The translations under genes and the position numbers were made by a program. Shown here piece after piece: positions 1,943-36,502 of a stretch of 64,000 nt of DNA; the first letter of the stretch is position 1; each line of letters begins with the position of its first letter. Origin of the DNA: a virus; the IMG/VR virus record IMGVR_UViG_3300027908_000004. One strand, 5' to 3'. The notes under the pieces were generated by a model. The model made no database searches. It was not told the origin of the DNA and was given only the letters and a program-made list of their open reading frames with translations.

Positions 1943-2821
1943 ATGAGCAACTTAAACGAACGTGCAATGTTAAGCAGTCTTCACATATCGACCTGGTCAG
2001 GAATGATGATTGACCGGGCCGTGACAGACGAAGTCAATGAAAGCCACAAGGCAGCTAAGGATGCCGGGCGCTACAACAAGCGCTTGGTAGCCACCAAGTT
2101 CCTCAGTGGCATCTCACAAGCCCATAGCAATGCAAGGGCCGCCCACAGGCTTCTGACATTGCCGTGGGAGGATGACGGTACGCGCATTCTGGCAACCGTA
2201 GGCTACGAAGCCTACGTGCGCAAGATGCGTGAATGCCGCCTGAAGGCCGAAGCTGAAGTCAAGACCTTCTTGGAAAGCCCTGATGCCTATGTGCAGGAAG
2301 CCAAGCAGCGGCTGGCACAAATGTTCGACATCAATGACTACCCTGACACTTCCACGCTGGCCACCAAGTTCGGCTTTGACGTGGAAATCAAGCCGATGCC
2401 TGACGCGGCTGACTTCCGCGCCAAGCTGAGCGACGCCAGTGTGGCAGCCATCACCAAGGACATCGAAAGGCGCACCAATCAGCGCCTTGAAACGGCCATG
2501 AATGATGTCTTTAACCGGGTTGTAGAACTTGTAGGGCGCATGTCCAAGCGGTTACGTGACTATGTGCCACCCAAGGACGGCAACCGGGCGGAAGGCATCA
2601 TCCGTGATTCTGTGGTCTACGACATCAGCGAACTGGCAACGGAAGTGTTGCCAGTGCTGAACGTGACCGATGACCCACGGATAACCGCACTCCAGAAGCA
2701 ATTGCTGGACGAGCTGGTTGAGCACTCGCCTGAAATCTTGCGGGCGGATGCCAAGGTGCGGGCTGCTACGCTGAGCAAAGCAGATCGCCTGCTTAAAAAG
2801 GTCCAAGGATATTTAACGTGA
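1943..2821 (+). CDS. hypothetical protein (292 aa)
   Basis: Same frame as track ORF 1904..2821. The start was moved to ATG 1943 because the conserved RBS lies 5 nt upstream and the earlier start falls inside the cassette hairpins. Confidence 0.7.
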   Translation: MSNLNERAMLSSLHISTWSGMMIDRAVTDEVNESHKAAKDAGRYNKRLVATKFLSGISQAHSNARAAHRLLTLPWEDDGTRILATVGYEAYVRKMRECRLKAEAEVKTFLESPDAYVQEAKQRLAQMFDINDYPDTSTLATKFGFDVEIKPMPDAADFRAKLSDASVAAITKDIERRTNQRLETAMNDVFNRVVELVGRMSKRLRDYVPPKDGNRAEGIIRDSVVYDISELATEVLPVLNVTDDPRITALQKQLLDELVEHSPEILRADAKVRAATLSKADRLLKKVQGYLT

Positions 2822-2884
2822 GGCGGTTTATCCGGCGTCTCATGGCAGCTTGGAATCAACTACGTTGGTGGTGGGGCCATTGAA

Positions 2885-2969
2885 TGTTTCTGTCCTGCCC
2901 TAGTTAATTCTAGGGCAGTGAGAAGCATTACTGCTTCAGGGTCTATCAAACAGGAGGAGATAAGATAAA
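2885..2969 (+). repeat. early intergenic cassette, canonical copy
   Basis: TGTTTCTGTCCTG 2885-2897. Hairpin CTGCCCTAG 2895-2903 / CTAGGGCAG 2910-2918. TGA. Hairpin GAAGCA-TTAC-TGCTTC 2922-2937. AACAGGAGGAGA 2949-2960. Confidence 0.75.
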
Positions 2970-4007
2970 ATGAGCACTTCAACTACTACTGGAACTACGG
3001 CTGTCCGTACTGAAACAATCCAAGGTGCAAAAGAGCTGGCCAGGGTATATCGGGAAAAAGACATCCCGTTATACCTTCACAGCGCACCCGGCATTGGCAA
3101 GTCGGACATAATGCGGCAACTGGCTGCTGAGAGTGGTTCAGGCTTCATTGATATCCGCGTGGGTACCATGCTGCCTGAAGACCTCACTGGCATCCCGGTG
3201 CCTGATCTGGAGAAGCGGCTGGCGGTATGGCTGCGGGCTACGTTCTGGCCTGAAGTCAACCGAGATGGTGCCCACGGTATCATCGCGTTTGATGAATTGG
3301 CTGACGCCAACCGTCAACTGCAATCGTGCATCTACCGGGTTATCTTGGATCGTCAAATTGGCGATTACAAGTTGCCACCCGGTTGGTGGCCGATGGCTGC
3401 TGGCAACCGTAGGGAAGACCGGGCTGCGGCCCAGTCAATTTCTACGGCCCTAGCCAACAGGTTTGCCCACGTCCACGTCCGTGCTGATGACAAGGCATGG
3501 ACTGAGTGGGCTAATCTGAATGGCATCAGCCCGCTTCTGATTGGTTTCATCAAGTTCAGGCCCGGCCTCCTTCATTCAATGGAAGGGGCTGACTTGTTGG
3601 CGTTCCCATCACCACGTTCTTGGGCTAAGGCGTCCAAGGTGTTTGATATTGGTGACGCACATTTACGGTTCCGGCTGGTGGCTGGCATCGTAGGTGAGGG
3701 GGCGGCAACCGAGGTTGAGACCTTCTTCAAGGCGCTCGATCTGCCTGAAATTGAGGACATACTCAGGGATCCGCTCAAAACCCATATCCCTGATGATCCG
3801 GGTTCCCGCTATGCTTTGACCAGCTTGCTTGCCCGCAAGATGGACAAGGAAAACTTCCCGCAAATCTACAAATACATCAAGCGCGATGACTTCGGTGCCG
3901 ACTACAGCACCGTGGTGGTGCTTGATGCCACCAAGCGGGATAGCACCCTCTGTGAAACCAAAACCTTTGTTGATTGGGCAAAATCCAACAAAAGTCTCCG
4001 TCTTTAG
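2970..4007 (+). CDS. MoxR/CobS-like AAA+ ATPase
   Basis: Walker A SAPGIGKS and Walker B IIAFDELAD. Size (345 aa) and layout are typical of MoxR-class AAA_5 ATPases. Confidence 0.8.
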   Translation: MSTSTTTGTTAVRTETIQGAKELARVYREKDIPLYLHSAPGIGKSDIMRQLAAESGSGFIDIRVGTMLPEDLTGIPVPDLEKRLAVWLRATFWPEVNRDGAHGIIAFDELADANRQLQSCIYRVILDRQIGDYKLPPGWWPMAAGNRREDRAAAQSISTALANRFAHVHVRADDKAWTEWANLNGISPLLIGFIKFRPGLLHSMEGADLLAFPSPRSWAKASKVFDIGDAHLRFRLVAGIVGEGAATEVETFFKALDLPEIEDILRDPLKTHIPDDPGSRYALTSLLARKMDKENFPQIYKYIKRDDFGADYSTVVVLDATKRDSTLCETKTFVDWAKSNKSLRL

Positions 4008-5288: not shown

Positions 5289-6539
5289 ATGAGCAAGATA
5301 AAGGATAAAGCTGCGCGAGAGAAAGTTGTGGCTGCCCGAACAAATCTTTTAGTTTCGAATGGGTTTTTCGGGTTCCTTGCGTTACAACTACGCTTGGAGG
5401 AAGCCACTGACGTTGGCGGCCATGAGATACCCACCATGGGTGTGGACGGGGTTACCATATTCTACAACCCCACGTTCGTTCACTCTCTGAATGAACGGGA
5501 AATTGAAGCAGTAGAAGCGCATGAGGTAATGCACTGCTGTTTCAAACACTTTTCCCGCCGTGGCGATCGGGATCCTAAGCTGTGGAACATGGCTGGTGAT
5601 TACGTCATCAACAACGATCTCACAGCCTCGGGTTTCACCCTGCCGTGGAAGCCCTGCACTTTTGACATGTTGGTCAATTCCCGTGGCCAGTTGCCCAAAG
5701 GTGAAAAGTTTCATCTGGCTGATCCAGCGCTGGATGGGATGACCACTGAGGAAATCTATGACAAGCTGTACCAAAAGGCCACCAAAATCCAAATTCAAAT
5801 GGGTGACGGTGGTGATCCTGGCGGTTGCGGTGAAGTTCTGGATGCCCCCGGAGGGGCGGCGGGGCAGGAAGCTGCCAAGCAAACGTGGGAAACTGCGGTA
5901 CGGCAGGCGGTGGCTGTCGCAGCGGCCAACAATGCCGGGTCAATCCCCGGCAGCCTGAAGCGGCTGATTGATGATCTGAGCAAGCCCAAGGTTTCGTGGA
6001 AGGACCTGACGCGGGCCTTCATAGACCAAAGCCTGATCAAGGACATCAGTTGGTCACGGATCAGCCGTCGCAGCACTGCACTAGGGACGTTGTTGCCGGG
6101 CCTGATTTCTGACCGGCTCAACCATCTGGTCTTTGTGGTTGATACGTCAGGCAGTGTGGATGCCAAACTGCTCAACGAGTTCATGAGCGAGGTGGCTGGT
6201 GCATTGGATCAGGGCACTGCCGATCAGCTATCAGTTCTGTATGCTGATACCCGTGTTCATGACGTCGATGAGTTTGTACCGGGCGATCTGGTGACCGCCC
6301 GTGAGTTGTCAAACGGAGGGGGTGGTACTGATTTTGAAGACTCCTTCAAGTGGATCAAGGAGAAAATCCCTGATGCAAGTTGTGTCATCTACCTGACTGA
6401 CTTGCAGGTCTACAACTTTGGTGAGGACCCCGGTTGCCCGACCTTGTGGGCTGTGTTCGGGCCTTCATCCTACTACCCGCAGTTGGCTGACAAGGTGCCC
6501 TTCGGCACCCCAATACATGTATCTGGGGTCTACGAGTGA
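5289..6539 (+). CDS. VWA-domain protein with N-terminal HExxH metallopeptidase-like domain
   Basis: HEVMH motif (EAHEVMHCCFKH) in the N-terminal half. MIDAS-like DTSGS (VVDTSGSV) in the C-terminal half. This is the usual partner type for a MoxR ATPase. Confidence 0.75.
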   Translation: MSKIKDKAAREKVVAARTNLLVSNGFFGFLALQLRLEEATDVGGHEIPTMGVDGVTIFYNPTFVHSLNEREIEAVEAHEVMHCCFKHFSRRGDRDPKLWNMAGDYVINNDLTASGFTLPWKPCTFDMLVNSRGQLPKGEKFHLADPALDGMTTEEIYDKLYQKATKIQIQMGDGGDPGGCGEVLDAPGGAAGQEAAKQTWETAVRQAVAVAAANNAGSIPGSLKRLIDDLSKPKVSWKDLTRAFIDQSLIKDISWSRISRRSTALGTLLPGLISDRLNHLVFVVDTSGSVDAKLLNEFMSEVAGALDQGTADQLSVLYADTRVHDVDEFVPGDLVTARELSNGGGGTDFEDSFKWIKEKIPDASCVIYLTDLQVYNFGEDPGCPTLWAVFGPSSYYPQLADKVPFGTPIHVSGVYE

Positions 6540-9394: not shown

Positions 9395-9631
9395 ATGGCC
9401 ATTGGGTTCCGTCTTAGGTTACAAGATTGGTATAAGGAAGGAAAGCCTCTTCCCGGATATGAATACATGAATGGCGGCCCATACCTTGCTTGGTTATTGG
9501 GCAAATCCAAAAGCCCATCACACTATGATGTAGGGGATTTCCCCCTGCTTGAAGAAAGCAATCCAGCCTTGGAAGGGCCAAACGGCTGGACGGTGCTCCA
9601 AATGCTAATTGCCAGAAAGGGCTTAAAATGA
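9395..9631 (+). CDS. small protein, GPNG-tail paralog family
   Basis: ATG 9395 has GGAGG 6 nt upstream. C-terminal LEGPNGWTVLQMLIARKG matches the family tail. Confidence 0.55.
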   Translation: MAIGFRLRLQDWYKEGKPLPGYEYMNGGPYLAWLLGKSKSPSHYDVGDFPLLEESNPALEGPNGWTVLQMLIARKGLK

Positions 9632-10428: not shown

Positions 10429-10505
10429 GCACCCATAGCTCAACTGGATAGAGCAGTGGATTTCTAATCCACAGGTTGCTGGTTCGAATCCATCTGGGTG
10501 CGCCA
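10429..10505 (+). tRNA. tRNA-Arg (anticodon UCU), CCA encoded
   Basis: Manual cloverleaf: acceptor GCACCCA/TGGGTGC, D stem GCTC/GAGC, anticodon stem GTGGA/TCCAC with loop TTTCTAA, T arm GCTGG-TTCGAAT-CCATC (one C-T mismatch), discriminator G, CCA. Confidence 0.85.
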
Positions 10506-10522
10506 CCATAGAGGAACATCAC

Positions 10523-10849
10523 ATGCACAGACACGGTGAAGCAGCCGAGATAATTCTGGCTGCACAAAAACTCAAACAAGGGCACCACAAGAAGGTGTTG
10601 GGGGCTCTCTATGAAACAGCCCATGACAACGTGTATGTCGGCTTTGCGCGGCTGATGGACATAACCGGCTTTGATCGGGCGCTCGTCCGCAGGACAGTGC
10701 GTTTGCTGGCCCGTAGAGGGCTGGCTGAATACAGCAACGGGCTGTTTCATGACGACGGCACCGTAGCAGGGTCAGGGTACGCCATCACCATTCGGGGTAT
10801 AGATGTGTGGGAAATCCTAGAAGAGGGGCCAAACAATGCCCGTGATTGA
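10523..10849 (+). CDS. winged-helix-like DNA-binding protein (108 aa)
   Basis: ORF track entry. The segment ITGFDRALVRRTVRLLARRGLAEYS resembles a MarR/wHTH recognition region. Confidence 0.5.
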   Translation: MHRHGEAAEIILAAQKLKQGHHKKVLGALYETAHDNVYVGFARLMDITGFDRALVRRTVRLLARRGLAEYSNGLFHDDGTVAGSGYAITIRGIDVWEILEEGPNNARD

Positions 10850-11114
10850 TTACCCTACTTTTGAACGCGCAGGTAACAATTGGGATAAAGCTTGGGGAAT
10901 AGCCTGTGGTTATGTTTCGTGGGGTGGGCTATCCGGTAATGCAAACGGGCTTACCTACTTCTTGGGTGCCAATCCGCAAGCGCTAAAATGGGCTGATGTC
11001 GGACGTACCCTTGTTGAACTGCCTAATGAAGAAGTAAAGCGGAAGATGGAACTTCTTGCTGGCCCATACTACGAGACCATCATTAAGGCGTGGAAGGCCA
11101 TTCACGTCAAATAA
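10836..11114 (+). CDS. small protein, GPNG-tail family (diverged tail)
   Basis: C-terminal LLAGPYYETIIKAWKAIH. Confidence 0.5.
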   Translation: MPVIDYPTFERAGNNWDKAWGIACGYVSWGGLSGNANGLTYFLGANPQALKWADVGRTLVELPNEEVKRKMELLAGPYYETIIKAWKAIHVK

Positions 11115-11459: not shown

Positions 11460-11500
11460 CTAGTTCAAATAAGAACTGTTTGAAATCTTTGAATTTGTCA

Positions 11501-11543
11501 GTTACAAAGGAAAAAGGCCGCCCCAGCGTGAACCGGAGCGGCC
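11501..11543 (-). terminator. rho-independent terminator oriented for minus-strand transcripts
   Basis: Stem GGCCGC 11516-11521 / GCGGCC 11538-11543. On the minus strand the stem is followed by TTTTTCCTTTGT. There is no T-run on the plus-strand side. Confidence 0.5.
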
Positions 11544-11877
11544 TGTCAGAATACTTGTTCAGAGCAAGATTCTGGAATTCGCTGCTGCCGCAGCTAGGGA
11601 TTGAATAACCCAACCTTCGGCGCACGTCCAGAGCCTTCTGAAGCAAATATGCTGGCCATAGCCAGCTCGTTGTATGAGCCGACACCATGGGCAAGACCGT
11701 GGGTGCAAGCGCGGAAGGGCATCCGTCAGTAAAACTCAAGGCTTCGCGCTGTGAAGCGCCAGTTGCCAGGAGAAGGCTCCGGGTTGCCCCGTCCTTCAGG
11801 CAGTTACTTCCACGATGGTTCTTGGAAGTAGCACACGCCAGCGCCAGTGCGAGACATGCCGCCAGCCAGACCCCGGC

Positions 11878-11893
11878 CACTTCCTAGGAAGTG
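11878..11893. promoter_or_regulatory. perfect 16-bp palindrome, candidate operator
   Basis: CACTTCCTAGGAAGTG. The same ACTTCC/GGAAGT half-sites recur as TACTTCCA-N10-TGGAAGTA at 11805-11830. Confidence 0.35.
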
Positions 11894-12050
11894 TAATGTT
11901 CTTGAACCATCAACCCGGCTCCGTTGTTCATGCCGTATTAGCTTCTGCTCTAGGGATTTCTGTTCTACTAAGAAGTCCCTAGCTAAAGCTATTCCCTCAC
12001 CGTTGTTCATGCTATATATCAATGTTCTCTGCTGTTTCTGGGTATTTCTA

Positions 12051-12230
12051 ATGAAAAAACAGGAAATGAAGGCATTAACCGAACAATGGCTGGCTAAACA
12101 TGATCCAATTAAGAAATTTAAACAATCTCCACGCTATAAGAACCGTCAGAAGCAGAAATTAGGCTGGATAAAGGCTTCTAAACAGAAGAAATACCAAGAT
12201 TTGGTTCTTAGACGGAAAGGTCTGAAATAA
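12051..12230 (+). CDS. 59-aa highly basic protein (uncertain)
   Basis: Distal part of track ORF 11847..12230, starting at ATG 12051 (MKKQEMKALTEQWLAKHDP...). No clear SD sequence. Confidence 0.35.
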   Translation: MKKQEMKALTEQWLAKHDPIKKFKQSPRYKNRQKQKLGWIKASKQKKYQDLVLRRKGLK

Positions 12231-12231
12231 A

Positions 12232-12432
12232 ATGAGAACTAAAGAAGGTTATAAGCCATGTGTTTGTGTGTTGTGCACCAAACTACGTGCAATCCCTGGG
12301 ATAGAACTAAACCAGGAGCTGGAAGATTCCATTGCTGAATTTCTGAACCGGAAAGGTTTGGCAGGCGCAGATGGCTACGCACTTCCATTGGTTCTGGCAT
12401 ATCTCATCAACCTTGGACACGGACCCAAATGA
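12232..12432 (+). CDS. GPNG-tail family, CxCxxC subtype
   Basis: N-terminal PCVCVLC. Diverged tail LAGADGYALPLVLAYLINLG. Confidence 0.6.
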   Translation: MRTKEGYKPCVCVLCTKLRAIPGIELNQELEDSIAEFLNRKGLAGADGYALPLVLAYLINLGHGPK

Positions 12433-12626
12433 ATCCAGATAAAGAAATACCCAAATTTGTATATGGATGTGAGTGCGTTTGGTGCCTAGTAACCAGGGAT
12501 TTGGGGTTAACCGAGGACGAGTTGCATCACTTAATTGCTGAAGATAGAGGGTTCTTGGAGAGGTTGGCGGGGCCTAATGGCCACACACTTCTTCAAATCT
12601 ACAGAATCAGGAAAGGAAAAACCTAA
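12429..12626 (+). CDS. GPNG-tail family, CxCxxC subtype
   Basis: GCECVWC. Tail LAGPNGHTLLQIYRIRKG. ATGA overlap with the upstream gene. Confidence 0.65.
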   Translation: MNPDKEIPKFVYGCECVWCLVTRDLGLTEDELHHLIAEDRGFLERLAGPNGHTLLQIYRIRKGKT

Positions 12627-12815
12627 ATGAGCATGTTCGGTGGCTGTACTTGCCCTCTGTGCCAGAAAATGGCCCCAATGACCACAAAACTTACCCAAAC
12701 TGAAAAGACCAATCTGGAACTAGCCCTCAATACGCGGCCTGAATTGTATAAGCTGTTTGCAGGGCCGCATGGGGAGGCGCTGCTGCGGGCCTATCTGATC
12801 AAGCACGGAGATTAG
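12627..12815 (+). CDS. GPNG-tail family, CxCxxC subtype
   Basis: GCTCPLC. Tail FAGPHGEALLRAYLIKHG. Confidence 0.65.
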   Translation: MSMFGGCTCPLCQKMAPMTTKLTQTEKTNLELALNTRPELYKLFAGPHGEALLRAYLIKHGD

Positions 12816-12818
12816 GCC

Positions 12819-13043
12819 ATGTGCTGGTATTGTGAGGCAAGAGAAAGAATCAGAGGCACCAATCAGTACAGCTTGGAGGAATCCTATAAGTGTCAATCTT
12901 ATCTCCGTGAGGCAAGCAGTAATCCAAGTGAGCCTTGGCCGCTATATGTCCCCGCTGCCGTTGAAGATTTACTTGCCAAATTAATTGGCCCCAACGGCAG
13001 AACTATCTTTGCCATCCTTGAAATAAGGAACAAACCAGAATGA
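12819..13043 (+). CDS. GPNG-tail family, CxxC subtype
   Basis: MCWYC. Tail LIGPNGRTIFAILEIRNK. Confidence 0.65.
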   Translation: MCWYCEARERIRGTNQYSLEESYKCQSYLREASSNPSEPWPLYVPAAVEDLLAKLIGPNGRTIFAILEIRNKPE

Positions 13044-13588
13044 AGCTTTGGCAGGATTTTATCTATTGGCTGACTATTAGGCCCAGATTGGCCATGTTGA
13101 GGTGGCAGTTTCCGGATGTTGAGATAAGCCCTGCGGGATCACGCTATGTGTGTAACCCCCCAAGCCTGCTAACCGATGTTGATTTCTTGGTTTATACCGA
13201 GGCACCGATTGAGGCCGCGCTTATGGCATTGGGCTACAAAGAATCCCAATTCATAGAATATGCCAATTGCCATTTGCAAGGGTTAGAGTTCAAATCCTGG
13301 AGGAAGAAAAAGGTAAACCTGATAGTGTCTTCCTCTAGGTTGTTTTCTGATTGCTACAACGTAGCCACCCACATCTGTAAAACCTATAATTTGCGATATA
13401 AGCACCACAGAGTGTTAGTGCATGAAGTGGTCAGGAACCCAACTGCCAACATTGTGATGCTAGACTCCATCTATGAGGATTTTGATCCGGGAGTTAAGAA
13501 TCTATTACGCACTTTAACTGGGCCACACGCCGCAACCATGCGCGAAGCCTACAAAGCCAAACACATGAGCAATCAGGAGTCACCATGA
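13040..13588 (+). CDS. GPNG-tail family member with larger N-terminal domain (possible minimal nucleotidyltransferase signature)
   Basis: Tail LTGPHAATMREAYKAKH. The N-terminal AGSRYVCNPPSLLTDVDFLV fits a GS-x11-DxD Pol-beta-type NTase pattern. That NTase call is weak and rests on the motif alone. Confidence 0.55.
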   Translation: MKLWQDFIYWLTIRPRLAMLRWQFPDVEISPAGSRYVCNPPSLLTDVDFLVYTEAPIEAALMALGYKESQFIEYANCHLQGLEFKSWRKKKVNLIVSSSRLFSDCYNVATHICKTYNLRYKHHRVLVHEVVRNPTANIVMLDSIYEDFDPGVKNLLRTLTGPHAATMREAYKAKHMSNQESP

Positions 13589-13866
13589 CCACTGAGGAAT
13601 TCGCAGGATATTACCGGCCAGCGGTGTACAATTTCCTGAAATTAGGCCTTGTTCGGGTAAGTGACAATGCTGATCAGTATCGTCCCTATCGTGACATGGA
13701 AAGGTTGCTGGGTTACCCAATTTTCAGCACATGGCAAGGTCAGACGGCAGAACTAGACAAGCCTATGGATGCCGCGACAAAGAACTTGTTAGGGCTTTTG
13801 GTAGGTCCACATGCGGTTACCATCTTGAAGGCCTATCAGGCAAAGAAGGGGATTAAAAATGACTGA
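13585..13866 (+). CDS. GPNG-tail family, YW-PAR subtype
   Basis: N-terminal AGYYRPAVYNF. Middle LLGYPIF. Tail LVGPHAVTILKAYQAKKG. Confidence 0.65.
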   Translation: MTTEEFAGYYRPAVYNFLKLGLVRVSDNADQYRPYRDMERLLGYPIFSTWQGQTAELDKPMDAATKNLLGLLVGPHAVTILKAYQAKKGIKND

Positions 13867-14161
13867 GGCAGAGGGCAACCGATACTGGAAACCTGCCAGA
13901 TGCCGGGTTGCGTCAATATTACCTGATGAAGATTTAGACCCCGCTTATGGTGGTGCCAAAACGTTAGGGGGCTTGCTCGGCCTTAATTATTCCTATCCAG
14001 GAAAATGGCGCGACACTGAATTAACAGACGAGCTAAAAAACACACTGGAGCTGATAAACGGCCCAAACGGCCACGCAATCATAAAAATCCTACAACTACG
14101 ACAGCAGGGAGAGACACTTGAAGAAAAACATCTACAAGATATTGGGGGAGCTAGTAGCTGA
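13859..14161 (+). CDS. GPNG-tail family, YW-PAR subtype
   Basis: NRYWKPARCRV. LGGLLGLNYSYP. Tail LINGPNGHAIIKILQLRQQG. Confidence 0.65.
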   Translation: MTEAEGNRYWKPARCRVASILPDEDLDPAYGGAKTLGGLLGLNYSYPGKWRDTELTDELKNTLELINGPNGHAIIKILQLRQQGETLEEKHLQDIGGASS

Positions 14162-14342
14162 GAGACGCCAAAACCTCGGTATGACCCAACAAGAGCTGGC
14201 TGACGCACTTAAGATGAGCAGGCCAGCCATTATCAATATGGAAGCGGGCCGACAGCGCATCTTGGTGCACCGTCTGATGGAGCTGGAAACAGCCCTTTCC
14301 AACTATCCGCTCTATAAGACCCTCAGGAAGGAATGCAAATGA
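14118..14342 (+). CDS. XRE-family HTH transcriptional regulator
   Basis: LGMTQQELADALKMSRPAIINMEAGRQ is a classic HTH_3 segment. TTG start per the track. Overlaps the tail of the previous gene. Confidence 0.7.
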   Translation: MKKNIYKILGELVAERRQNLGMTQQELADALKMSRPAIINMEAGRQRILVHRLMELETALSNYPLYKTLRKECK

Positions 14343-14434
14343 TCAGTAGCAATGAAGTTGCATTCATCGCGGGGGCTGTGTTTGCGATTGGGTTTGGGAT
14401 GGCTCACTTCTTGATCTGGCTCAACAAGAAATGA
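14339..14434 (+). CDS. 31-aa single-pass membrane peptide (below track cutoff)
   Basis: Hand translation: MISSNEVAFIAGAVFAIGFGMAHFLIWLNKK. ATGA overlaps at both ends (14339-14342 and 14431-14434). Confidence 0.4.
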   Translation: MISSNEVAFIAGAVFAIGFGMAHFLIWLNKK

Positions 14435-14892
14435 CTAAAGATGAAATATTGGCGGCCCTGCCAAAACTCAAGCAGGCGGACTTAGAGGCCGTTCATGCCC
14501 TAGCGGGGCACTTGCTGGGGCTTGTGCCAGCCAATGCGGCTCAAGGGGGCGGCCCAGCGTTTGACGCATTGGTGACCGCCCTAGGCCTTTCAATGGCCTA
14601 TCAAACCCTCATGGGTACCAAGGCCGGGCAAATATTCAATAAACGGGTGCCAGAGCTGGTAAAATACCTAGATTCACACTTTGCCGGTTGGGATGACAAC
14701 AAACTGTCACAATTGGCCTTTTTACAATTCCTGTACGGGCTGATTATTACTGACCTAAAAGAAAGAAACGTCACGGCGTCAGTGGGTATGGTAATCAGTA
14801 ACATGAGCCGTATTCCGGAACTGCTGGAAAACGCTTTTCCGGGCTATCTCAGATCAGGTATGGGCGAGGTTATTTTGAGACAGTTTTCATGA
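14431..14892 (+). CDS. hypothetical protein (153 aa)
   Basis: ORF track entry. Translationally coupled on both sides. Confidence 0.6.
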   Translation: MTKDEILAALPKLKQADLEAVHALAGHLLGLVPANAAQGGGPAFDALVTALGLSMAYQTLMGTKAGQIFNKRVPELVKYLDSHFAGWDDNKLSQLAFLQFLYGLIITDLKERNVTASVGMVISNMSRIPELLENAFPGYLRSGMGEVILRQFS

Positions 14893-15256: not shown

Positions 15257-16678
15257 GTGTCAGTAAGCTTATCAGCAGTACAGGAAAACCTGATTTGTCT
15301 GCTCGCCTACGACGACAAGCATTGTGGTTCTATCCGCAACCTGGTTGAGGTTGAGTGGTGGGGTGGCCCATTCCGTGAAATTGCACGGCGCATCTATGAG
15401 TATGTAGACCGCTACAAGAGAGCTCCAAAAGATCACATAGCTGATCTTATGGCTGATAAGTTGGATTCAAAAAAGGGCAGTGAATCCACCCTTTACACTG
15501 ACATCCTGACCAGCATTAGAGACCAGCGAGAAATGGTCAATGCTGAGTATGCAATGAGCCAGCTAGGGCTCTACATCAAACGCCAGTCACTCCGTTCAGT
15601 GGCCATTGATCTAGCCAAAGCCCTTCAACGGGACACCGATGAATCCCTTGAAGAGGCAGAACGTCTAATCAAGACGGCCACGGTTCAGGCAGCAACCGTG
15701 TTTGATCCTGGGCTTCGGTTGTCCGATAAGGACAGAGTACTTGAATTCCTGGACCAGGGCACAAGCTGCTTCCCCACCGGGATACCAGAGTTTGATAAAC
15801 GGGGGTTTGGGCCAACCCGGAAAGAACTGTGGCTTTACATAGCTGCGGCAAAACGCGGCAAGACCTGGATGCTGATCCAATTGGCCAAGATGGCCATCGT
15901 GCACAGACTTCGGGTTGTGCACATAACCCTTGAAATGTCTGAAGATAGATCGGCACAGCGCTACATGCAGGCCCTGTTTGCCATGTCCAAGCGGCCCGAC
16001 AAGGCCATTGTCACCAAGTTTGAACGGGATCAGCTAGGTCGCCTTACCGGCTTTGACGAAGCTGAAGTCTACCCCAAACTGTCACTGGGTGACCCTGATA
16101 TTCGTGAGAAACTGGAGCAGAAAATTGACCAATTTGGATCCCGGCTTCTTAGTAATATATTTGTCAAGCAGTTTCCTACTGGGTCTCTTACTGTCAGGCA
16201 ATTGGAAGGCTACTTGGATAGCCTTAATTCTTCTGAGTGTTTTGTACCTGATCTGCTCATCGTTGACTACCCTGATTTGATGAAGCTGGACAAGGACAAT
16301 TATCGGCTTGCCATAGATGCGGTCTACAAGGACCTTCGAGGCATTGCGGTAGAGCGCAACTTGGCATTAGCCGTGGTCAGCCAAGGCAATCGCTTATCCG
16401 AGAAAGCCAAGAACGTAGGAAGCGGCCATGTGGCCGAGGCATGGAGCAAAATAGCCCATGCTGATTGCATCATTACCTACAACCAGACGGAATCCGAGAG
16501 AAGCATGGGTTTGGCTAGGCTGTATGTTGCAGGCGGTCGAAATGATGAAGATAAGATAACCCTTTGCATATCGCAAAACTATGCACTTGGGTCCTTCGTG
16601 GTCGACTCAATATTGATGTCGGCTAGCAATTATTGGCCGAATCTTCCAAACGGAGATCAAGAAAATGAGGATGCGTAA
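15257..16678 (+). CDS. dnaB: DnaB-like replicative DNA helicase
   Basis: Walker A AAAKRGKTW and Walker B LLIVDYPDL in the C-terminal RecA-like half. The N-terminal domain is the length seen in DnaB. GTG start. Confidence 0.8.
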   Translation: MSVSLSAVQENLICLLAYDDKHCGSIRNLVEVEWWGGPFREIARRIYEYVDRYKRAPKDHIADLMADKLDSKKGSESTLYTDILTSIRDQREMVNAEYAMSQLGLYIKRQSLRSVAIDLAKALQRDTDESLEEAERLIKTATVQAATVFDPGLRLSDKDRVLEFLDQGTSCFPTGIPEFDKRGFGPTRKELWLYIAAAKRGKTWMLIQLAKMAIVHRLRVVHITLEMSEDRSAQRYMQALFAMSKRPDKAIVTKFERDQLGRLTGFDEAEVYPKLSLGDPDIREKLEQKIDQFGSRLLSNIFVKQFPTGSLTVRQLEGYLDSLNSSECFVPDLLIVDYPDLMKLDKDNYRLAIDAVYKDLRGIAVERNLALAVVSQGNRLSEKAKNVGSGHVAEAWSKIAHADCIITYNQTESERSMGLARLYVAGGRNDEDKITLCISQNYALGSFVVDSILMSASNYWPNLPNGDQENEDA

Positions 16679-16853
16679 ACAGCTAGTTACCCAACCAGTA
16701 CGCAGACCAAATGACTATTTCAGATTGCGGTATTATTGGCTAAACGAGCTTTGCTGGCTCAGGGCCAAATGCCGCAATGGCACCGCGTCTAAGGGGGACG
16801 TGAAAATAGTTCAGAAAGAGCTAGTACGGTTAAGGCATGAGGAGAGGCTTTGA
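16665..16853 (+). CDS. hypothetical basic protein (62 aa)
   Basis: ORF track entry. Overlaps its neighbours by 14 nt and 4 nt. Confidence 0.45.
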   Translation: MRMRKQLVTQPVRRPNDYFRLRYYWLNELCWLRAKCRNGTASKGDVKIVQKELVRLRHEERL

Positions 16854-17095
16854 TGACGGGGCACGAGATTAACAATTACTGGCTTCCGGCTAGAAAAGTA
16901 GTGTGGGGTGGGGAACCAGAAGGACATTGGTATGAAGCCTCACAGAAGCTAGCTGCGCTGCTTGGCATCTCATACCCCACACTCAATTACACGGCTGACT
17001 TTGTTTTGACTGATAAGATAAAACATCAACTCGAGCTGATAAAAGGCCCAAACGGTAAAACCGTGGTGAAAATACTAGAGGCGAGGCAGAAATGA
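16850..17095 (+). CDS. GPNG-tail family, YW-PAR subtype
   Basis: NNYWLPARKVV. LAALLGISYP. Tail LIKGPNGKTVVKILEARQK. Confidence 0.65.
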   Translation: MMTGHEINNYWLPARKVVWGGEPEGHWYEASQKLAALLGISYPTLNYTADFVLTDKIKHQLELIKGPNGKTVVKILEARQK

Positions 17096-17388
17096 CCCGT
17101 GAACAGTTGATAAAATATTGGAATCCTGCCCGTTCGGCAGTATTTGGCAGAATAGTAGAAGAGGAAGATCGTTACCAAGCTACGTTACAGTTAGCTTCTT
17201 TGTTGGGGGTCTACTATCCGAGACCGGAATATTGGCACGAGGTTCCGTTTACCCAGGAATTGAAGCGTAGTTTGGAATTGATCGTGTCTTCAAACGGTCA
17301 CACAATCATAAAAATGCTGGAGGTGAAACGTGGCCACTCTGTGGAAAAGGGCACTTCCGCAACAGTATCGCATGATGCGGATTGTTAG
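17092..17388 (+). CDS. GPNG-tail family, YW-PAR subtype
   Basis: IKYWNPARSAV. LASLLGVYYP. Tail LIVSSNGHTIIKMLEVKRG. Confidence 0.6.
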   Translation: MTREQLIKYWNPARSAVFGRIVEEEDRYQATLQLASLLGVYYPRPEYWHEVPFTQELKRSLELIVSSNGHTIIKMLEVKRGHSVEKGTSATVSHDADC

Positions 17389-17782
17389 GGGTGCGGTTTT
17401 AAATGCGGCCCATGCCCACGGTTTGCCACCCTCTAAAGGGTTTGCTAACAGTGTGGCTAAACGGGCTATAGGAACACTGACCGGCCAATGGCCGGAAGTG
17501 TTGGCGGCGGCTCACCACCGTCGCCAATTGGGCCAGAGCAAAAGGACCGACTTGCGTGGCCTCATGGCATCTTATCTCCGCTTAGATGCTGTGAAAGGGG
17601 GCCGCCTCAGGTATGTAAGGCGGTCCCCACTTGTTCAGTGTTGGAAGTTTATGTCGGCCCAAATGACCTTCATCAAGCACAACGGCTCTTCTGAGGAATA
17701 TGAAATGATGCAGCGGGTGCTGCGGTTGCTAGATCAGGCTCAGAAAGAATATGAAACCTTTCACGGAAAGGAAGCAAAATGA
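17330..17782 (+). CDS. hypothetical basic protein (150 aa)
   Basis: GTG 17330 is preceded by GGAGGTG. Alternative ATG start at 17372. Confidence 0.5.
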   Translation: MATLWKRALPQQYRMMRIVRGAVLNAAHAHGLPPSKGFANSVAKRAIGTLTGQWPEVLAAAHHRRQLGQSKRTDLRGLMASYLRLDAVKGGRLRYVRRSPLVQCWKFMSAQMTFIKHNGSSEEYEMMQRVLRLLDQAQKEYETFHGKEAK

Positions 17783-18006
17783 CCCACCAAGAAGCTTGTC
17801 AATATTGGTTTCCAGCTAGAGATAATGTTGGGGCGTCTGATGTTAGGGGGTCCAGAGACCTAGCAAAATTGCTTGGATACAAGTATCCGGTGGCTGGATA
17901 TCATGCTTGGATTAAACTGCCCCCAAATCTTAAAAACGTACTCAGAGGATTAGCAGGCCCTAACAAGGAATTTGTACTCAAGGTATTAGAGACACAACGC
18001 AAATGA
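17779..18006 (+). CDS. GPNG-tail family, YW-PAR subtype
   Basis: CQYWFPARDNV. LAKLLGYKYP. Tail LAGPNKEFVLKVLETQRK. Confidence 0.65.
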   Translation: MTHQEACQYWFPARDNVGASDVRGSRDLAKLLGYKYPVAGYHAWIKLPPNLKNVLRGLAGPNKEFVLKVLETQRK

Positions 18007-18278: not shown

Positions 18279-18473
18279 ATGACAAAGCATGAGCACGTAT
18301 GGGCTGATACGGGAAAAGAGGGGCATCACAACACCCCGTTTCCTGTGTGCTACGTGCGGTGTCAGATTTGCCAGCAAAACGGTTACCGCATCAGGCCCCC
18401 AGCACCGCCCCGATCACCTGATTTGGTCTATACGTGGCTTGATGAAGATCCGCCTGTTACCGAGCGTGGATGA
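18279..18473 (+). CDS. hypothetical protein with CxxxCxxC segment (64 aa)
   Basis: ORF track entry. Contains VCYVRCQICQQ. Confidence 0.45.
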   Translation: MTKHEHVWADTGKEGHHNTPFPVCYVRCQICQQNGYRIRPPAPPRSPDLVYTWLDEDPPVTERG

Positions 18474-20047
18474 TAAATCAGAAAACAGTAGACGCGTTCC
18501 TAGTCCGCAAGCTTGACAATCACGATTGGCTCAAGCGGCTGGGTAAGCGTGAACTGTTCGCTGAGTTAAAGGAAGAGCTGAAGCTCATTCCAAATTTCCA
18601 TAATTTGTGGACCCACCAGCTCGTCTGCTTCTTGCTCGTCACTTCCCTGAAACGCTTCATGCTTCATATTGACCTCGGCGGAGGCAAGACCCTCATCACC
18701 CTATACTCCATACTTCTGAGGAAGCTAAAAGGCGAAAAGCCCAAGGCCATTGTTTTTGTACCCTATGTCACCGCCGTGGATACCTGGATTCAGGAGTGTA
18801 AAAAACACACCCCAGATTTAAAATTGGTTCCTTTGATAGGCACCACAATTGAGAATCTGCGGCTGCTTGAGGAAGGGTCAGGTGATGTCTACGTTATTTG
18901 CTACGCCAGCAGTGTCGCAATGTTGGCGGAGAGTGCGCCAGGTCCAACCAGGCGCACTCGTAAAAAATGGACAATAGACCCAAAACGAACACGAAAGGTG
19001 TTCGCCGGGTTTGATACATTCGTGGCCGATGAGATACACAAGTGCAGCGATATTGGTACTCTGACCTACAAGATGTGCCGCACCATCAGCTATACCTGCG
19101 AGTACGGCATAGGCCTCTCAGGCACCCCGTTTGGCAAAGAAGTGGCTGACGTTTGGGCGCAGTTCTATTTGATAGATTTTGGTGCTACGTTGGGCGAAAC
19201 CAAGGGCTTGTTCCAGGAAGCGTTTTTCACTCAAAAGCTAAATTACTTTAGCGGCTTCAAAGAATACAAATTTGACACTTCTAAGTTGCCTATCCTGAAA
19301 CAGGCCATCAAACACAATTCCATCCACTATTCATCTAGTGAGATGCACGATTTACCGCCAAAGAACTATTTACGGATCAAATTGCCGCTTCCTACCGCTA
19401 TAGAGGGTTATGTCAGTGTTGCCGCAGCCAAGTTTATTGCTGCCTTGCGAAGCACTGACACGGCCAACCGTTTCAGGGTAGCCGAGGCCTCCTACCTGCA
19501 ACTGCGCCAACTAGCATCCGGTTTTATGACCGTGGACGGTCAAAATGACGCCAAAATTAAAGTGTCATTTGACAACAACCCAAAACTTGATCTTCTAGAA
19601 GAAAAGATCACTGCCATGCCGACGCAATCTAAGATGGTGGTGTTCCATCATTTTGTGCACACCAACACGTTGATAAGCGAACGGTTAACCAAGCTTAAGA
19701 TAGGACATGCCAGAGTTTGGTCAGGTCAAAAGAATCCAATGGAGGAACTAAGGAAGTTCAGAGATGAATACGATTGCCGGGTTCTGGTCCTTAATGACCA
19801 ATCAGGCTCAGCATCCTTAAATTTACAACACGCCAATTACATGTACTTCTTTGAACAACCTGATTCGCCCATAAATCGTCAACAAGGCGAGGGGCGCATC
19901 TGGAGGCCCGGTCAAACCAAACCGGTTTTCTATATAGACCCGGTTATGCAAGGAACCGTGGATGAACGCATTCTTAATGCGAACTTGCAAGGCAAGAAAC
20001 TGCTAGACGAACTACTGAAGGGTACGGTGAACTTACATGACAAATGA
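18470..20047 (+). CDS. SNF2-family (DEAD-like) helicase
   Basis: Motif I DLGGGKT, motif II VADEIHK, and a C-terminal helicase domain with QQGEGRIWRPGQ. Confidence 0.85.
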   Translation: MINQKTVDAFLVRKLDNHDWLKRLGKRELFAELKEELKLIPNFHNLWTHQLVCFLLVTSLKRFMLHIDLGGGKTLITLYSILLRKLKGEKPKAIVFVPYVTAVDTWIQECKKHTPDLKLVPLIGTTIENLRLLEEGSGDVYVICYASSVAMLAESAPGPTRRTRKKWTIDPKRTRKVFAGFDTFVADEIHKCSDIGTLTYKMCRTISYTCEYGIGLSGTPFGKEVADVWAQFYLIDFGATLGETKGLFQEAFFTQKLNYFSGFKEYKFDTSKLPILKQAIKHNSIHYSSSEMHDLPPKNYLRIKLPLPTAIEGYVSVAAAKFIAALRSTDTANRFRVAEASYLQLRQLASGFMTVDGQNDAKIKVSFDNNPKLDLLEEKITAMPTQSKMVVFHHFVHTNTLISERLTKLKIGHARVWSGQKNPMEELRKFRDEYDCRVLVLNDQSGSASLNLQHANYMYFFEQPDSPINRQQGEGRIWRPGQTKPVFYIDPVMQGTVDERILNANLQGKKLLDELLKGTVNLHDK

Positions 20048-21179
20048 AGTCAGACAAAACGTTGAGAATGAAAAACAAAAGATATGGGCAAATCTCTTCA
20101 AAATGCCCCACAGCACGTTCCAGGATACGGGGTTATACCAGCAAATTCATCAACAGTTTATTGCTGACAATCCTGGGGATATTTTCTTTGAGCGGGTTCT
20201 GGTGGCCCTTACCAAGAAGCCTGACACGTTCAGGGAAACGGTAATTGGGATAAAAAATCATCTGGCGGACGGCCGGGTGATAATGCCGCGTGAATTGCGT
20301 GAGGTTGCCATCTTTGGTTCGTACATGGGGCACAATGTGCTAATTTGGATTGATGCTCGGGAATACTCTGAGGCATTCAGGTTCCAGATTGACATTATCA
20401 CTCATCCTGATGCCACTGCCGCCCTCAAAAAGATCATTTGCAGTGATCTGGAGGCAGAAAGGCTTCCGGTGATCAAATGGTGGTACAAGGGGCGTCACGG
20501 TGAAGAAACCCGCGACTTCTACCTCCCGGTTGAAAAAACCGAATTGCTGCCTGAGTTCTACCCAGACCTTGGCAATCCAGTTACCTATCTGGATGAATAC
20601 ATGGACTCCAATGAAAGCATATTGCTCATTGCAGGCCCCCCAGGAACTGGCAAAACCACGCTATTGCGGCATCTGATTAGCCGGTACAAGCTGAGCGCCC
20701 ACGTTATCTACGACGAACGCCTGATGGATGCCGATGGCCCGTTTCAAAGCTTCTTGTTTGATGGTGAAATGTCACCCAGAGCCCCCTCAATTGACTATGA
20801 GGAAAGTGAAACTTCTGCCTCTAGCGTCATGATCATTGAGGATGCAGACACCATCCTGACCAGCCGAGAAAAGGACGGGAACAAGCTAATGTCCCGTTTC
20901 CTGAACATATCGGACGGTTTGATCAAGCTGCCTAACAAGAAGCTAGTGTTTACCACCAACGTCCTTGATTTTGGCAACGTAGACCATGCCCTGATAAGGC
21001 CGGGCCGGTGTTTTGGGGTCATGAAAACCCGAGAGCTCAATCTGACTGAGGCACAAGCTGTGGCACGAGCCGCTGACTTACCCATTCCAATGGAAAAGAA
21101 AGAATACTCATTGGCCGAGATCTTCAACAAAGGAAAGACGGCGCATGTCCGCAAAATCGGATTTGGAACAAGACATTGA
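20037..21179 (+). CDS. AAA+ ATPase
   Basis: Walker A IAGPPGTGKTT, Walker B VMIIEDAD, and RPGRC in the second region of homology. Confidence 0.75.
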   Translation: MTNEVRQNVENEKQKIWANLFKMPHSTFQDTGLYQQIHQQFIADNPGDIFFERVLVALTKKPDTFRETVIGIKNHLADGRVIMPRELREVAIFGSYMGHNVLIWIDAREYSEAFRFQIDIITHPDATAALKKIICSDLEAERLPVIKWWYKGRHGEETRDFYLPVEKTELLPEFYPDLGNPVTYLDEYMDSNESILLIAGPPGTGKTTLLRHLISRYKLSAHVIYDERLMDADGPFQSFLFDGEMSPRAPSIDYEESETSASSVMIIEDADTILTSREKDGNKLMSRFLNISDGLIKLPNKKLVFTTNVLDFGNVDHALIRPGRCFGVMKTRELNLTEAQAVARAADLPIPMEKKEYSLAEIFNKGKTAHVRKIGFGTRH

Positions 21180-21438
21180 AGATTTTGATTACACTATTCC
21201 TGTCCCCCCTGGGGTAACGGAAGCAATGCACTATTGGCAGGGCCTGTGGAGGGTGGCTGAGAGAAATGTGGGAAGTACTGCGGAATTAATGAGGATTCTA
21301 ACGATTACTCGATCCATTCCGTGGAAAATCTGGCTTTCATCGAAGTGTCTAAAACGGCGGGAACTTCTACGGAAATTGGGAAGCCACCATGGTGAGACAA
21401 TTTACAAGGCAATAAAGGCAGCCAATGGATACGATTGA
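21145..21438 (+). CDS. GPNG-tail family (diverged)
   Basis: MHYWQGLWRVA. Tail LGSHHGETIYKAIKAANG. Confidence 0.5.
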   Translation: MSAKSDLEQDIEDFDYTIPVPPGVTEAMHYWQGLWRVAERNVGSTAELMRILTITRSIPWKIWLSSKCLKRRELLRKLGSHHGETIYKAIKAANGYD

Positions 21439-21667
21439 AATCACTGATGTAAGGCACCCAGATTTTAAGAATTACTGGTATAAAGTATGGGGCGCTGCAT
21501 ATGCCAATGTTGGGTATCCGCGTGCGATACACTTGCTTGGGTACTCCGGGTATTTTGCTGACAACTGGAATCACGATCCAAAAGTAGTAAAGAGGTTATT
21601 ACAGTTTGCGGGTCCTCATGGCAAAACAATAGCCAGAGCCATTGAGGCAGCCAATGGATTGGATTAG
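21425..21667 (+). CDS. GPNG-tail family
   Basis: KNYWYKVWGAA. Tail FAGPHGKTIARAIEAANG. Confidence 0.6.
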   Translation: MDTIEITDVRHPDFKNYWYKVWGAAYANVGYPRAIHLLGYSGYFADNWNHDPKVVKRLLQFAGPHGKTIARAIEAANGLD

Positions 21668-25004: not shown

Positions 25005-26017
25005 ACAGAGTAGAACTAATAAAAACACTAGAATTGGTAAAGCCAGCGCTGGCAACCACCAACCAAATTCCCATATTCCAATGCTTCATATTCAAGCCAG
25101 GATTTGTAGAGGCCTATGACGACCAGATAGCCATCACCGGCCCGTGTGACGGTGAGCAGGAATTTGCTGTTCCAGGCAATACGTTGCTTGGACTGCTATC
25201 GAATAGTGGGGCAGAAGAAATAAGCCTTGACCTGAAATCAGATATCCTAGTTTTGACCATGAGCAAATCGGTCAGCAAGCTGGCTTTTCAGCCGCCCGAG
25301 AGCTTCATATTTCAGGAACCTGACCCTAAATGGAACCTGACCCTTCCCTTCACCACCAGTTTGGCTGAGGCTGTAGAAGTCTGTCTAGGGTCTGTGTCAA
25401 AGGACACCACCCAACCCGCGCTCAATGGCATAAGCTTTGAAGGCAACAAGCTCTACGCCTGTAATGGCGATTCGCTGACTAGGTTCACCATTGAACACAC
25501 TGCCAAGGCACGGGTGCTCCTGCCTACGGCATTTTGCAGCGCCGTACTCAAGCTTTGGAAAGCGTTGGATGTAATCAAAGGCGAACTGTTGATCAGCGAC
25601 GAGTGGGTAAGTGCACAATTCGGGGCTTGGGCTGTCTATGGCCAAATCCTTGAAATCAAAGATCCCATAGACTTCGAACAACTGATTACACAAAATGTTA
25701 AAACGAAAATACCGCTGCTCCCTGTGCCGGAAGGTCTTTCCGAGGGACTCGGGCGTGCTCGAATACTGTCTGATCCCGAGAGCCAGAAAACTGTTATATC
25801 GATTGTGGGTAAAAAAATCACCCTTCACACTCAAACCCATGTGGGCGCAACCACCGATAAATTCGTATTTGGGGGGTCCCATCCCGACGTGGTGGCCAAT
25901 GTCAATGCAGCTCACCTGCAAGATGCCCTGTCCAAATGTGACCGGGTCGCTTTTCATGAAAACTGCTGCCTCCTTGCAAAAGATCCGAGCTTGTTGATGT
26001 TACTTAGCAATATGTAA
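25001..26017 (+). CDS. dnaN: DNA polymerase III beta-type sliding clamp
   Basis: The N-terminus VNRVELIKTLELVKPALATTNQIPIFQCFIF and the overall length match the DnaN pattern. An ATG start at 24980 is also possible. Confidence 0.7.
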   Translation: MNRVELIKTLELVKPALATTNQIPIFQCFIFKPGFVEAYDDQIAITGPCDGEQEFAVPGNTLLGLLSNSGAEEISLDLKSDILVLTMSKSVSKLAFQPPESFIFQEPDPKWNLTLPFTTSLAEAVEVCLGSVSKDTTQPALNGISFEGNKLYACNGDSLTRFTIEHTAKARVLLPTAFCSAVLKLWKALDVIKGELLISDEWVSAQFGAWAVYGQILEIKDPIDFEQLITQNVKTKIPLLPVPEGLSEGLGRARILSDPESQKTVISIVGKKITLHTQTHVGATTDKFVFGGSHPDVVANVNAAHLQDALSKCDRVAFHENCCLLAKDPSLLMLLSNM

Positions 26018-32254: not shown

Positions 32255-32383
32255 TATGTTTAATTTACATCGCATTCTATCGGGATCACCAGCAACCAGA
32301 AAAGAACTAGTTGGGGCAGGTTTGTTCGTACTTCTTTGGTTTCTAATGGATTTGGCGCAGTTCGTAGATTGGTTAATTTCCAA

Positions 32384-36501: not shown

Positions 36502-36502
36502 C

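Follow-up and report, generated by a model that had tools for sequence, protein, structure and literature searches.

A previously undescribed family of small phage proteins with an apparently portable C-terminal hairpin

Background

Large viruses are known to carry multi-copy families of small early proteins, such as the host-takeover module of SPO1 and the Bcl-2-like families of poxviruses. Small nucleotidyltransferases (NTases) are found next to small helical proteins in the MNT-HEPN toxin-antitoxin pairs, two-gene cassettes that consist of a minimal NTase (MNT) and its partner. Among short two-helix elements, the helix-hairpin-helix motif (HhH) follows the pattern L.GIG.ktA..Il..R and the LEM motif the pattern GP...tTRklYEKK. 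To our knowledge, the early regions of phages abound in small genes without annotation, for which few organising principles are known. Here, we analysed 64,000 nucleotides (nt) of the IMG/VR virus record IMGVR_UViG_3300027908_000004, referred to as the window in the following. An earlier inspection of its letters (the sequence-only reading) had noticed a tandem array of seven small genes at positions 12,232 to 14,161 that share a C-terminal tail. They belong to a paralogous family of 14 members, located in the early/replication region of an uncultivated soil phage of ~92 kb.

Results and Discussion

The family in the window

According to our analysis, the shared tail marks a genuine family of phage proteins that rests on solid statistics, has not been described before and carries a portable C-terminal hairpin; the window contains 14 copies. 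The tail is predicted to be a hairpin of about 30 residues, composed of a helix, a G-P-[HNY]-[GA] turn and a second helix. A hidden Markov model (HMM) of the tail, comprising 33 columns, was searched against all 1491 six-frame open reading frame (ORF) segments of the window, and the top of the resulting list was made up of family members only (expectation values, E, of 1e-14 to 3e-10). When each sequence was left out in turn, the proteins 12429, 12627, 12819, 13040, 13585 and 13859 (genes are named by their start positions) were recovered with E 6e-9 to 3e-3. A second HMM, A3, was built without any sequence of the Cys-type (that with a CxxC or CxCxxC head) or of the 182-residue type, mostly from other metagenomes; it still matches the Cys-type tails of 12429, 12627 and 12819 (E 1.5e-6 to 8e-5). 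The similarity of the tails is therefore significant in six of the seven array proteins and exceeds chance. The proposal that all seven end in the same motif stands for these six, but the tail of 12232 has decayed (leave-one-out E 180). All seven nevertheless belong to the family, whose set in the window is 14 rather than seven; all 14 lie within 9.4–21.7 kb, the rest of the window and the opposite strand being free of members according to the HMMs. The members, with lengths in amino acids (aa), are:

9395–9631, plus strand: divergent member, 78 aa as publicly called (84 aa if translation began at the TTG of 9377); hairpin nt 9536–9622, LEGPNGWTVLQMLIARKG (tail HMM E 0.016, A3 HMM E 3.4e-6).
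10836–11114, plus strand: member with a divergent head, 92 aa; hairpin nt 11022–11108, LLAGPYYETIIKAWKAIH (A3 HMM E 4.8e-10, leave-one-out E 0.036).
12232–12432, plus strand: Cys-type, 66 aa, head PCVCVLC; decayed hairpin nt 12325–12411, LAGADGYALPLVLAYL.
12429–12626, plus strand: Cys-type, 65 aa, head GCECVWC; hairpin nt 12531–12617 (leave-one-out E 1e-7; A3 HMM E 1.5e-6, tail only).
12627–12815, plus strand: Cys-type, 62 aa, head GCTCPLC; hairpin nt 12723–12809 (leave-one-out E 1.6e-5, A3 HMM E 8e-5).
12819–13043, plus strand: Cys-type, 74 aa, head MCWYC (CxxC only); hairpin nt 12948–13034 (leave-one-out E 8.6e-4, A3 HMM E 4.3e-5).
13040–13588, plus strand: putative NTase-fold head fused to a hairpin, 182 aa; hairpin nt 13481–13567, residues 148–176 (A3 HMM E 2.3e-5).
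13585–13866, plus strand: canonical-type, 93 aa (YYRPAV, LLGYP); hairpin nt 13765–13851 (A3 HMM E 8e-22, leave-one-out E 1.7e-8).
13859–14161, plus strand: canonical, 100 aa (YWKPAR, LLGLNYSYP); hairpin nt 14021–14107 (A3 HMM E 1.3e-26), followed by a 16-residue extension of low model confidence.
16853–17095, plus strand: canonical, 80 aa (MTGHEINNYWLPAR...), downstream of DnaB, protein P0007 of the exhaustive search set (see below); hairpin nt 17006–17092 (A3 HMM E 8.7e-29).
17092–17388, plus strand: canonical, 98 aa; hairpin nt 17248–17334, with the turn SSNG in place of GPNG (A3 HMM E 7e-30, tail HMM E 7.6e-5).
17779–18006, plus strand: canonical, 75 aa; hairpin nt 17917–18003, LAGPNKEFVLKVLETQRK (A3 HMM E 9e-27).
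21145–21438, plus strand: probable divergent member, 97 aa; hairpin-like end nt 21340–21426, LGSHHGETIYKAIKAAN.
21425–21667, plus strand: divergent member, 80 aa; hairpin nt 21572–21658, FAGPHGKTIARAIEAANG (A3 HMM E 6.8e-11).

Protein 12232, with GADG at the turn, fails both the leave-one-out and the A3 HMM test. It is paralogous to 12429, its hairpin having decayed, and its membership follows from BLASTP similarity only (E 9e-5, 42% identity over 45 aa, extending from CxCxxC into the decayed tail). The weakest member is 21145 (A3 HMM E 4.5e-4), which is 33% identical to its neighbour 21425; a 49-nt DNA repeat of 73% identity is common to this gene and the tail of 21425. An ORF at 17488–17694, which contains "AWPHG", was tested and ruled out as a family member.

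The array itself was described correctly as seven back-to-back, mostly overlapping genes: all seven ORFs (12232, 12429, 12627, 12819, 13040, 13585 and 13859) are present with the starts and ends given for them, and the proteins contain the head strings CVCVLC, CECVWC, CTCPLC, CWYC and YWKPAR as well as the tail strings that had been quoted. The genes are packed head to tail, with overlaps of 4 nt at three junctions (12432/12429, 13043/13040 and 13588/13585) and of 8 nt at a fourth (13866/13859); one pair abuts (12626/12627) and another is separated by 3 nt (12815/12819). Most starts are preceded by a purine-rich sequence resembling a ribosome binding site. Two of the genes, 12429–12626 and 12819–13043, were overlooked when genes were called for the public versions of this contig (L001, L002), yet both encode a significant hairpin.

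The family beyond the window

An exhaustive HMMER search with a profile made from window sequences only retrieved 338 cluster representatives (E≤1e-3), 65 of them even at E≤1e-10, and with few exceptions they are 75–110 aa long and matched end to end; eight window members can be aligned over their whole length. Two word-seeded protein searches returned only the window's own proteins in the first case and 49 metagenomic proteins in the second, and a cluster look-up of the family proteins yielded no names. The isoelectric point (pI) of the family has a median of 8.0, with 16% of the proteins below 6. Four metagenomic homologs (P0009, P0097, P0109 and P0123; 138–174 aa) have two family domains or hairpins in one polypeptide; they may be tandem fusions that exist in nature or may reflect frameshifts that went unrecognised.

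The family had not been recognised from the letters, and we found no match to it in Pfam, PHROGs, NCBIfam, PDB (sequence or fold) or BFVD (fold). None of 125 members was assigned to a family in Pfam, PHROGs or NCBIfam. Sequence-profile searches of PDB with the full domain and with the tail only gave a best E of 0.17, and Foldseek searches of PDB and BFVD with the five-helix model described below gave a best E of about 1 with template modelling (TM) scores below 0.4, so that neither HMMs nor Foldseek placed the hairpin in any well-characterised domain. No DNA similarity to GenBank phages was detected, tblastn of the family consensus against GenBank phage genomes found no match, and a literature search revealed nothing relevant. 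A scan of 185,579 species genomes with a degenerate DNA pattern, which would catch only ~7% of the members, gave four matches, all by chance, and hence no evidence of prophage or cellular copies.

Structure of the canonical members

The canonical consensus reads MT..E...YW.PAR, then a variable loop, then S..LA.LLG..YP...W..I.LT.ELK..L..LAGPHG.TIIK.L..RK. An AlphaFold2 model of the 13859 domain, based on an alignment of only 8 sequences, shows a compact arrangement of five helices (residues 3–20, 28–39, 49–52, 57–67 and 71–82) with a mean predicted local distance difference test score (pLDDT) of 86.5 and a predicted TM score (pTM) of 0.75. The N-terminal half comprises the MT..E...YW.PAR helix and the LA.LLG..YP helix, and the hairpin corresponds to helices 57–67 and 71–82 (pLDDT 94–97), joined by a three-residue G-P-x turn. 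In the canonical members, the hairpin is thus predicted to be the C-terminal half of one ~80-aa five-helix domain. This differs from the sequence-only reading, in which YW..PAR and LLG..YP formed a separate head with an appended tail: since the tail is the last two of five helices in the model, it would be half a domain in the canonical class, and no appended peptide. Nor do the exact motifs YW-x-PAR and LLG-x-x-YP occur in 13585, which has YYRPAV and LLG-YP instead.

Conserved columns represent the hydrophobic core, the turn and a number of polar positions (13859 numbering), namely E5 and R14 in the head and K60, H70, T73, K76, R81 and K82 in the hairpin. Position 60 is K or R in 83% of the sequences, position 70 is H, Y or N in 99%, position 76 is K or R in 95%, and positions 81 and 82 are basic in ~75%. 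The periodicity of helix 5 would place K76 opposite the hydrophobic stripe, which together with the other conserved basic and polar hairpin positions suggests a conserved basic strip.

One hairpin on different heads

Judged by its sequence, the hairpin is a homologous module present on at least three heads that have no detectable relation to each other. The profile of the Cys-type proteins aligns with A3 in hhalign at a probability of 96.5% (E 8e-10), and the 30 aligned columns cover the tail only, while the head of the 182-aa protein is an independent domain; the notion of one tail on unrelated heads is thus borne out for these two. In the Cys-type heads, CxxC is invariant and CxCxxC is found in five of six sequences, the CxxC of 12819 lining up with that of the others. 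There is no conserved fourth ligand, and the sole match to a zinc-finger profile is a weak one to zf-WRNIP1_ubi (E 0.93). A search for related loci seeded with 12429 found no relatives. On a different viral contig of 64.8 kb (L021), six hairpin genes are located within 3.5 kb, two of which begin with CxCxxC (CDCSGC and GCGCAIC), indicating that the architecture of a Cys head followed by a hairpin is conserved beyond the phage of the window. One Cys-type member of L021 has a very Cys-rich N-terminus (CWCC..C..CDCSGC). A 217-aa gene of no assigned family (2511–3164) is interspersed among the hairpin genes of L021; positions 2215–2478 and 3486–3749 of that contig were noted together with it.

Protein 13040 consists of a head (residues ~1–135), a variable linker and the hairpin. 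We identified 11 homologs of ~180 aa with 37–45% identity, and all 12 proteins including 13040 end in the hairpin; the linker preceding it is gap-rich and modelled with lower confidence. The head (residues 24–133) matches positions 13–125 of the 141 positions of phrog_15166 (E 1.3e-17), a type of protein annotated as hypothetical only. A homolog of the head without the tail is the 124-aa hypothetical protein of Agrobacterium phage 7-7-1, and another is found in locus L014. In tblastn, the head is 28–34% identical to products of the Agrobacterium phages 7-7-1, OLIVR4 and Milano and of two Xanthomonas phages, the length of 124 aa being that of the 7-7-1 protein. As far as these sequences tell, fusion of the head to the hairpin is specific to the clade of the window's phage.

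The AlphaFold2 model of 13040 (pLDDT 84.8, pTM 0.82) shows an alpha/beta head followed by helices, with those of the hairpin at residues 150–158 and 164–175. The sequence-only reading had pointed to a GS-x11-DVD pattern reminiscent of minimal NTases. The pattern is present as G33-S34, 11 residues and D46-V47-D48; it is invariant in all 12 homologs, with G33-S34 following strand 28–32 and D46-V47-D48 at the start of strand 47–52. In a Foldseek search of PDB, the head matched almost exclusively NTases (GrpB, Cid1, GLD-2, TUT1/4/7, Pol mu, TdT, CutA, URT1 and MenAT1). The scores were weak, the best being that for GrpB (2nrk, E 9.6e-4, probability 1.0), with TM scores of 0.3–0.46. At the fold level, the NTase idea is therefore supported, and the head is modelled as a Pol-beta-type NTase fold, but sequence matches in Pfam or PDB and an invariant third acid are lacking. 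Curated NTase families such as Pfam NTP_transf_2 and GrpB gave no match at E≤1 to any of the 12 homologs, and a PDB profile search with the 182-aa family gave nothing significant. In the later strands of the head, R88 and N93 are invariant, neither of which is acidic, and E68 in strand 67–69 is present in seven of the 12 sequences.

Genomic context

The contig, which is ~92.3 kb long and was recovered from soil metagenomes, is phage-like, encoding tRNA-Arg, a DUF2201 peptidase-VWA protein, DnaB (15257–16678), an SNF2 helicase (18470–20047), an AAA+ protein (20037–21179), a methylase, a fusion of uracil-DNA glycosylase, exonuclease and PolA, a clamp-loader-like ATPase, RecA and SbcCD-like genes. 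The family contexts that we examined are all phage-like metagenomic contigs, usually with several copies upstream of DnaB. In the syntenic relatives L003, L006, L007, L008, L010 and L013, the small-gene cluster is located between DUF2201 and the genes for an XRE-family helix-turn-helix (HTH) protein, DnaB and SNF2, i.e. in the same position upstream of XRE-HTH, DnaB, SNF2 and AAA+ genes. Relative loci of 6–20 kb contain four to eight copies. The gene with the NTase-fold head and hairpin lies inside the arrays of the window, L007, L008, L010 and L013, often with overlapping starts and stops; in L006 it is found ~2 kb upstream of tandem canonical members.

Four members (9377, 10836, 13040 and 13585) have orthologs in other phages that are closer to them than their paralogs in the window. 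For example, the closest relative of 9395–9631 is its ortholog in L007 (45% identity, E 3e-14), and 10836 has an ortholog in L013 at E 6e-12. The DNA of the copies is similar in short patches only. Both findings mark the paralogs as old and individually maintained.

Several neighbouring features were recorded along the way. Directly upstream of the array, ~770 nt (11460–12231) are without a called gene in public records; this segment contains a strong GC-rich stem-loop of 13 pairs (11515–11544) and several short inverted and direct repeats, and could be an early promoter/regulatory region or an origin. Rfam gave no match there. Promoter and terminator scans revealed nothing above the shuffled expectation. 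The tRNA-Arg (anticodon TCT; 10429–10505), the sole Rfam match in the window, is situated among small early genes. The gene for the DUF2201 putative metallopeptidase and VWA-like protein (5289–6539) has conserved counterparts in L006 and L007, likewise upstream of the small genes. In the relatives, the XRE-HTH gene is followed by a gene for a small protein resembling sigma-70 region 4 (L003 421–753, L006 11363–11593, L008 5431–5691 and L010 2719–2955), for which no counterpart was detectable in the window's phage. The XRE-HTH gene is separated from a 153-aa gene (14431–14892) preceding DnaB by a hydrophobic ORF of 33 aa with a membrane-helix-like sequence (14333–14434), inside which the public annotation places a 31-aa gene. 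The 862-aa polymerase fusion (26017–28605) combines a domain of the uracil-DNA glycosylase superfamily with a 3'-5' exonuclease and a family A polymerase, and its closest cultured relative is that of Edwardsiella phage ZHS (32.5% identity). Finally, a NUMOD4/HNH homing-endonuclease-like gene (34349–34987) was found between the RecA-like gene (32336–33409) and the SbcD/SbcC-like pair (35494–38582).

What the hairpin may do

We tentatively favour a role of the hairpin as a shared recognition module that takes different heads to one common partner, because of its basic strip, its modular distribution and the tight linkage of the family to the NTase-fold protein. As a unit, the hairpin would have been transferred to two heads that are unrelated, the NTase-fold domain of 13040 and the short G-CxCxxC head of 12232–12819, and would bring an enzyme, a Cys motif or a helical head to the common partner early in infection. 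Such a partner would probably be negatively charged, either a nucleic acid or a hub protein of the replication/transcription machinery, and the stand-alone small members might work there as binders, competitors or regulators. The docking peptide for a common partner that the sequence-only reading suggested is a reasonable and plausible inference; the data show the family with its modularity, conservation and synteny, while docking and the nature of the partner are what we infer.

Several points weigh against a docking role. The canonical hairpin is modelled inside a compact domain and may therefore not be free to dock. Not all members keep the basic strip, position 76 being Q, R, A and E in 12429, 12627, 12819 and 13040, respectively, and the pI of the family is mixed around its median. 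No similarity to DNA-binding or docking families was found by Pfam, hhalign, PDB profile or Foldseek searches. Moreover, the third catalytic acid of the 13040 head is not conserved, so that the "enzyme" may be inactive. Nothing so far shows an unusual mechanism.

It is a doubtful but far-reaching extension of the shared module that the hairpin serves as a portable "address tag" of a soil phage clade, by which an NTase-fold enzyme, Cys-motif proteins and ~10 small helical proteins would all meet at a single hub of the host or phage, be it the replisome, RNA polymerase or a nucleic-acid structure, or would co-assemble combinatorially, with the NTase modifying the hub or the hairpin-bearing partners. 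If an address tag or a combinatorial complex of this kind were true, it would represent a new organising principle for the take-over of the host by phages. One short module links 14 genes of one phage, hundreds of metagenomic proteins and an enzyme-like domain, and the hairpin offers a concrete experimental handle that can be used as bait. Should it act in docking or assembly, the partner would give a site of action to the whole family at once and would hint at what the NTase-fold protein modifies. The new family is also well suited to Pfam or PHROG curation.

We consider it rather unlikely that the hairpin is a module for self-association, forming four-helix bundles and thereby homo- or hetero-oligomers of the paralogs and the NTase-fold protein. 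In that case, the NTase could have the small proteins as its regulators, adaptors or substrates, loosely as in minimal NTase/HEPN systems. Such a role would fit the position of the gene for the tailed NTase-fold protein among small members, in the window and in five relatives, often with overlapping stops and starts, the similarity of the 13040 tail to that of its neighbour 13585 (58% identity over 26 aa) and the fused two-domain proteins P0009, P0097 and P0123; in a monomer, the CxxC and CxCxxC motifs would fall short of the ligands needed for a Cys4 site, whereas a dimer would supply enough. However, the confident model of the canonical domain is monomeric and has the hairpin packing against the head of the same chain, no HEPN motif Rx4-6H is found among the conserved columns, and Foldseek detected no match to structures of HEPN or of other NTase partners.

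A purely structural explanation, in which the hairpin is the slowest-evolving core of a fast-evolving domain, the heads are mostly eroded versions of one another and the functions of the paralogs differ, is unlikely in our view. It would account for the fact that most of the conserved positions are hydrophobic or turn residues, and for the LA.LLG-like helix that is kept in many divergent members; also, 12819 could be aligned with the A3 profile over positions 16–85, and the paralogs are old and individually conserved. On the other hand, the head with the NTase fold clearly represents another domain, relatives of which lack the tail, the alignment of the Cys-type profile with the family is limited to the tail, and a different phage (L021) has a conserved CxCxxC head, too.

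The hairpin could also be a known two-helix motif binding nucleic acid or chromatin (HhH, LEM or the related helix-extension-helix, HeH, or an HTH such as that of sigma-70 region 4), in which case the family would consist of small DNA-binding proteins. By eye, LAGPHGkTIIKmLE.R resembles the HhH and LEM patterns, the basic strip and the location of the genes inside a replication module would suit such proteins, and one 182-aa homolog has a weak match to Ogg-HhH (E 0.1). We nonetheless regard this as improbable. Pfam families for HHH, LEM, SAP or HTH were hit neither by 125 members at E≤0.01 nor by nine window proteins at E≤1, and no HhH or LEM chain of PDB was matched at E≤10. Comparison of the tail profile A7 with the LEM domains of emerin and LAP2 by hhalign gave a probability of 1.6%, the emerin sequence, of the two, having been verified against PDB; emerin and LAP2 chains are present in the PDB set. 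Likewise, A3 compared with A6, a profile of the sigma-70 region 4-like proteins encoded beside the relatives' arrays, gave 0.2%. The turn is G-P-[HNY]-[GA] rather than the G-[IVL]-G of HhH, and Foldseek was empty.

Finally, it is very improbable that these are precursors of ribosomally synthesised and post-translationally modified peptides (RiPPs), with a variable Cys-rich N-terminus as the core and the conserved C-terminus as a "follower" for a modifying enzyme: the tandem short genes with one conserved and one variable, Cys-containing end and a weak PDB match to a Nif11-domain protein (chain 9zn4_A, E 0.53) might suggest this, but that match is not significant and comes without a Pfam or NCBIfam hit to the Nif11 leader, a Pfam scan of the 20 larger window proteins detected no family of RiPP-modifying enzymes, most members are cysteine-free folded domains of ~80 aa, and the same tail is found on a 135-aa enzyme-like domain.

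Comparison with known systems

With HhH and LEM/HeH, the hairpin has in common two short helices of similar length, a Gly/Pro turn, and Thr and basic residues on the second helix, but its three-residue G-P-x turn is unlike the G-h-G hairpin of HhH (h, hydrophobic) or the long loop of LEM. The resemblance to phrog_15166 and to proteins of the 7-7-1 gp29 type is confined to the head of 13040; those proteins, at ~124 aa, stop before the hairpin. Pol-beta-type NTases resemble 13040 in the G-S motif followed, 11 residues further on and in the next strand, by D-x-D, as also reflected in the Foldseek list, whereas the C-terminal helices of 13040 end in the hairpin and not in a PAP-associated or HEPN-like domain.

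As in MNT-HEPN pairs, a small NTase-fold protein is encoded beside small all-helical proteins by tightly spaced and often overlapping genes. Here, however, the setting is the replication module of a lytic-type phage with many paralogs instead of a two-gene cassette and, unlike in MNT-HEPN pairs, the partners have the hairpin in common with the NTase. The families of SPO1 and the poxviruses are similar in that many small, fast-diverging and mostly helical paralogs are clustered in an early region. They show no relation to the present family in sequence or fold, which is set apart from them by a short module common to an enzyme-like domain and a Cys-motif head.

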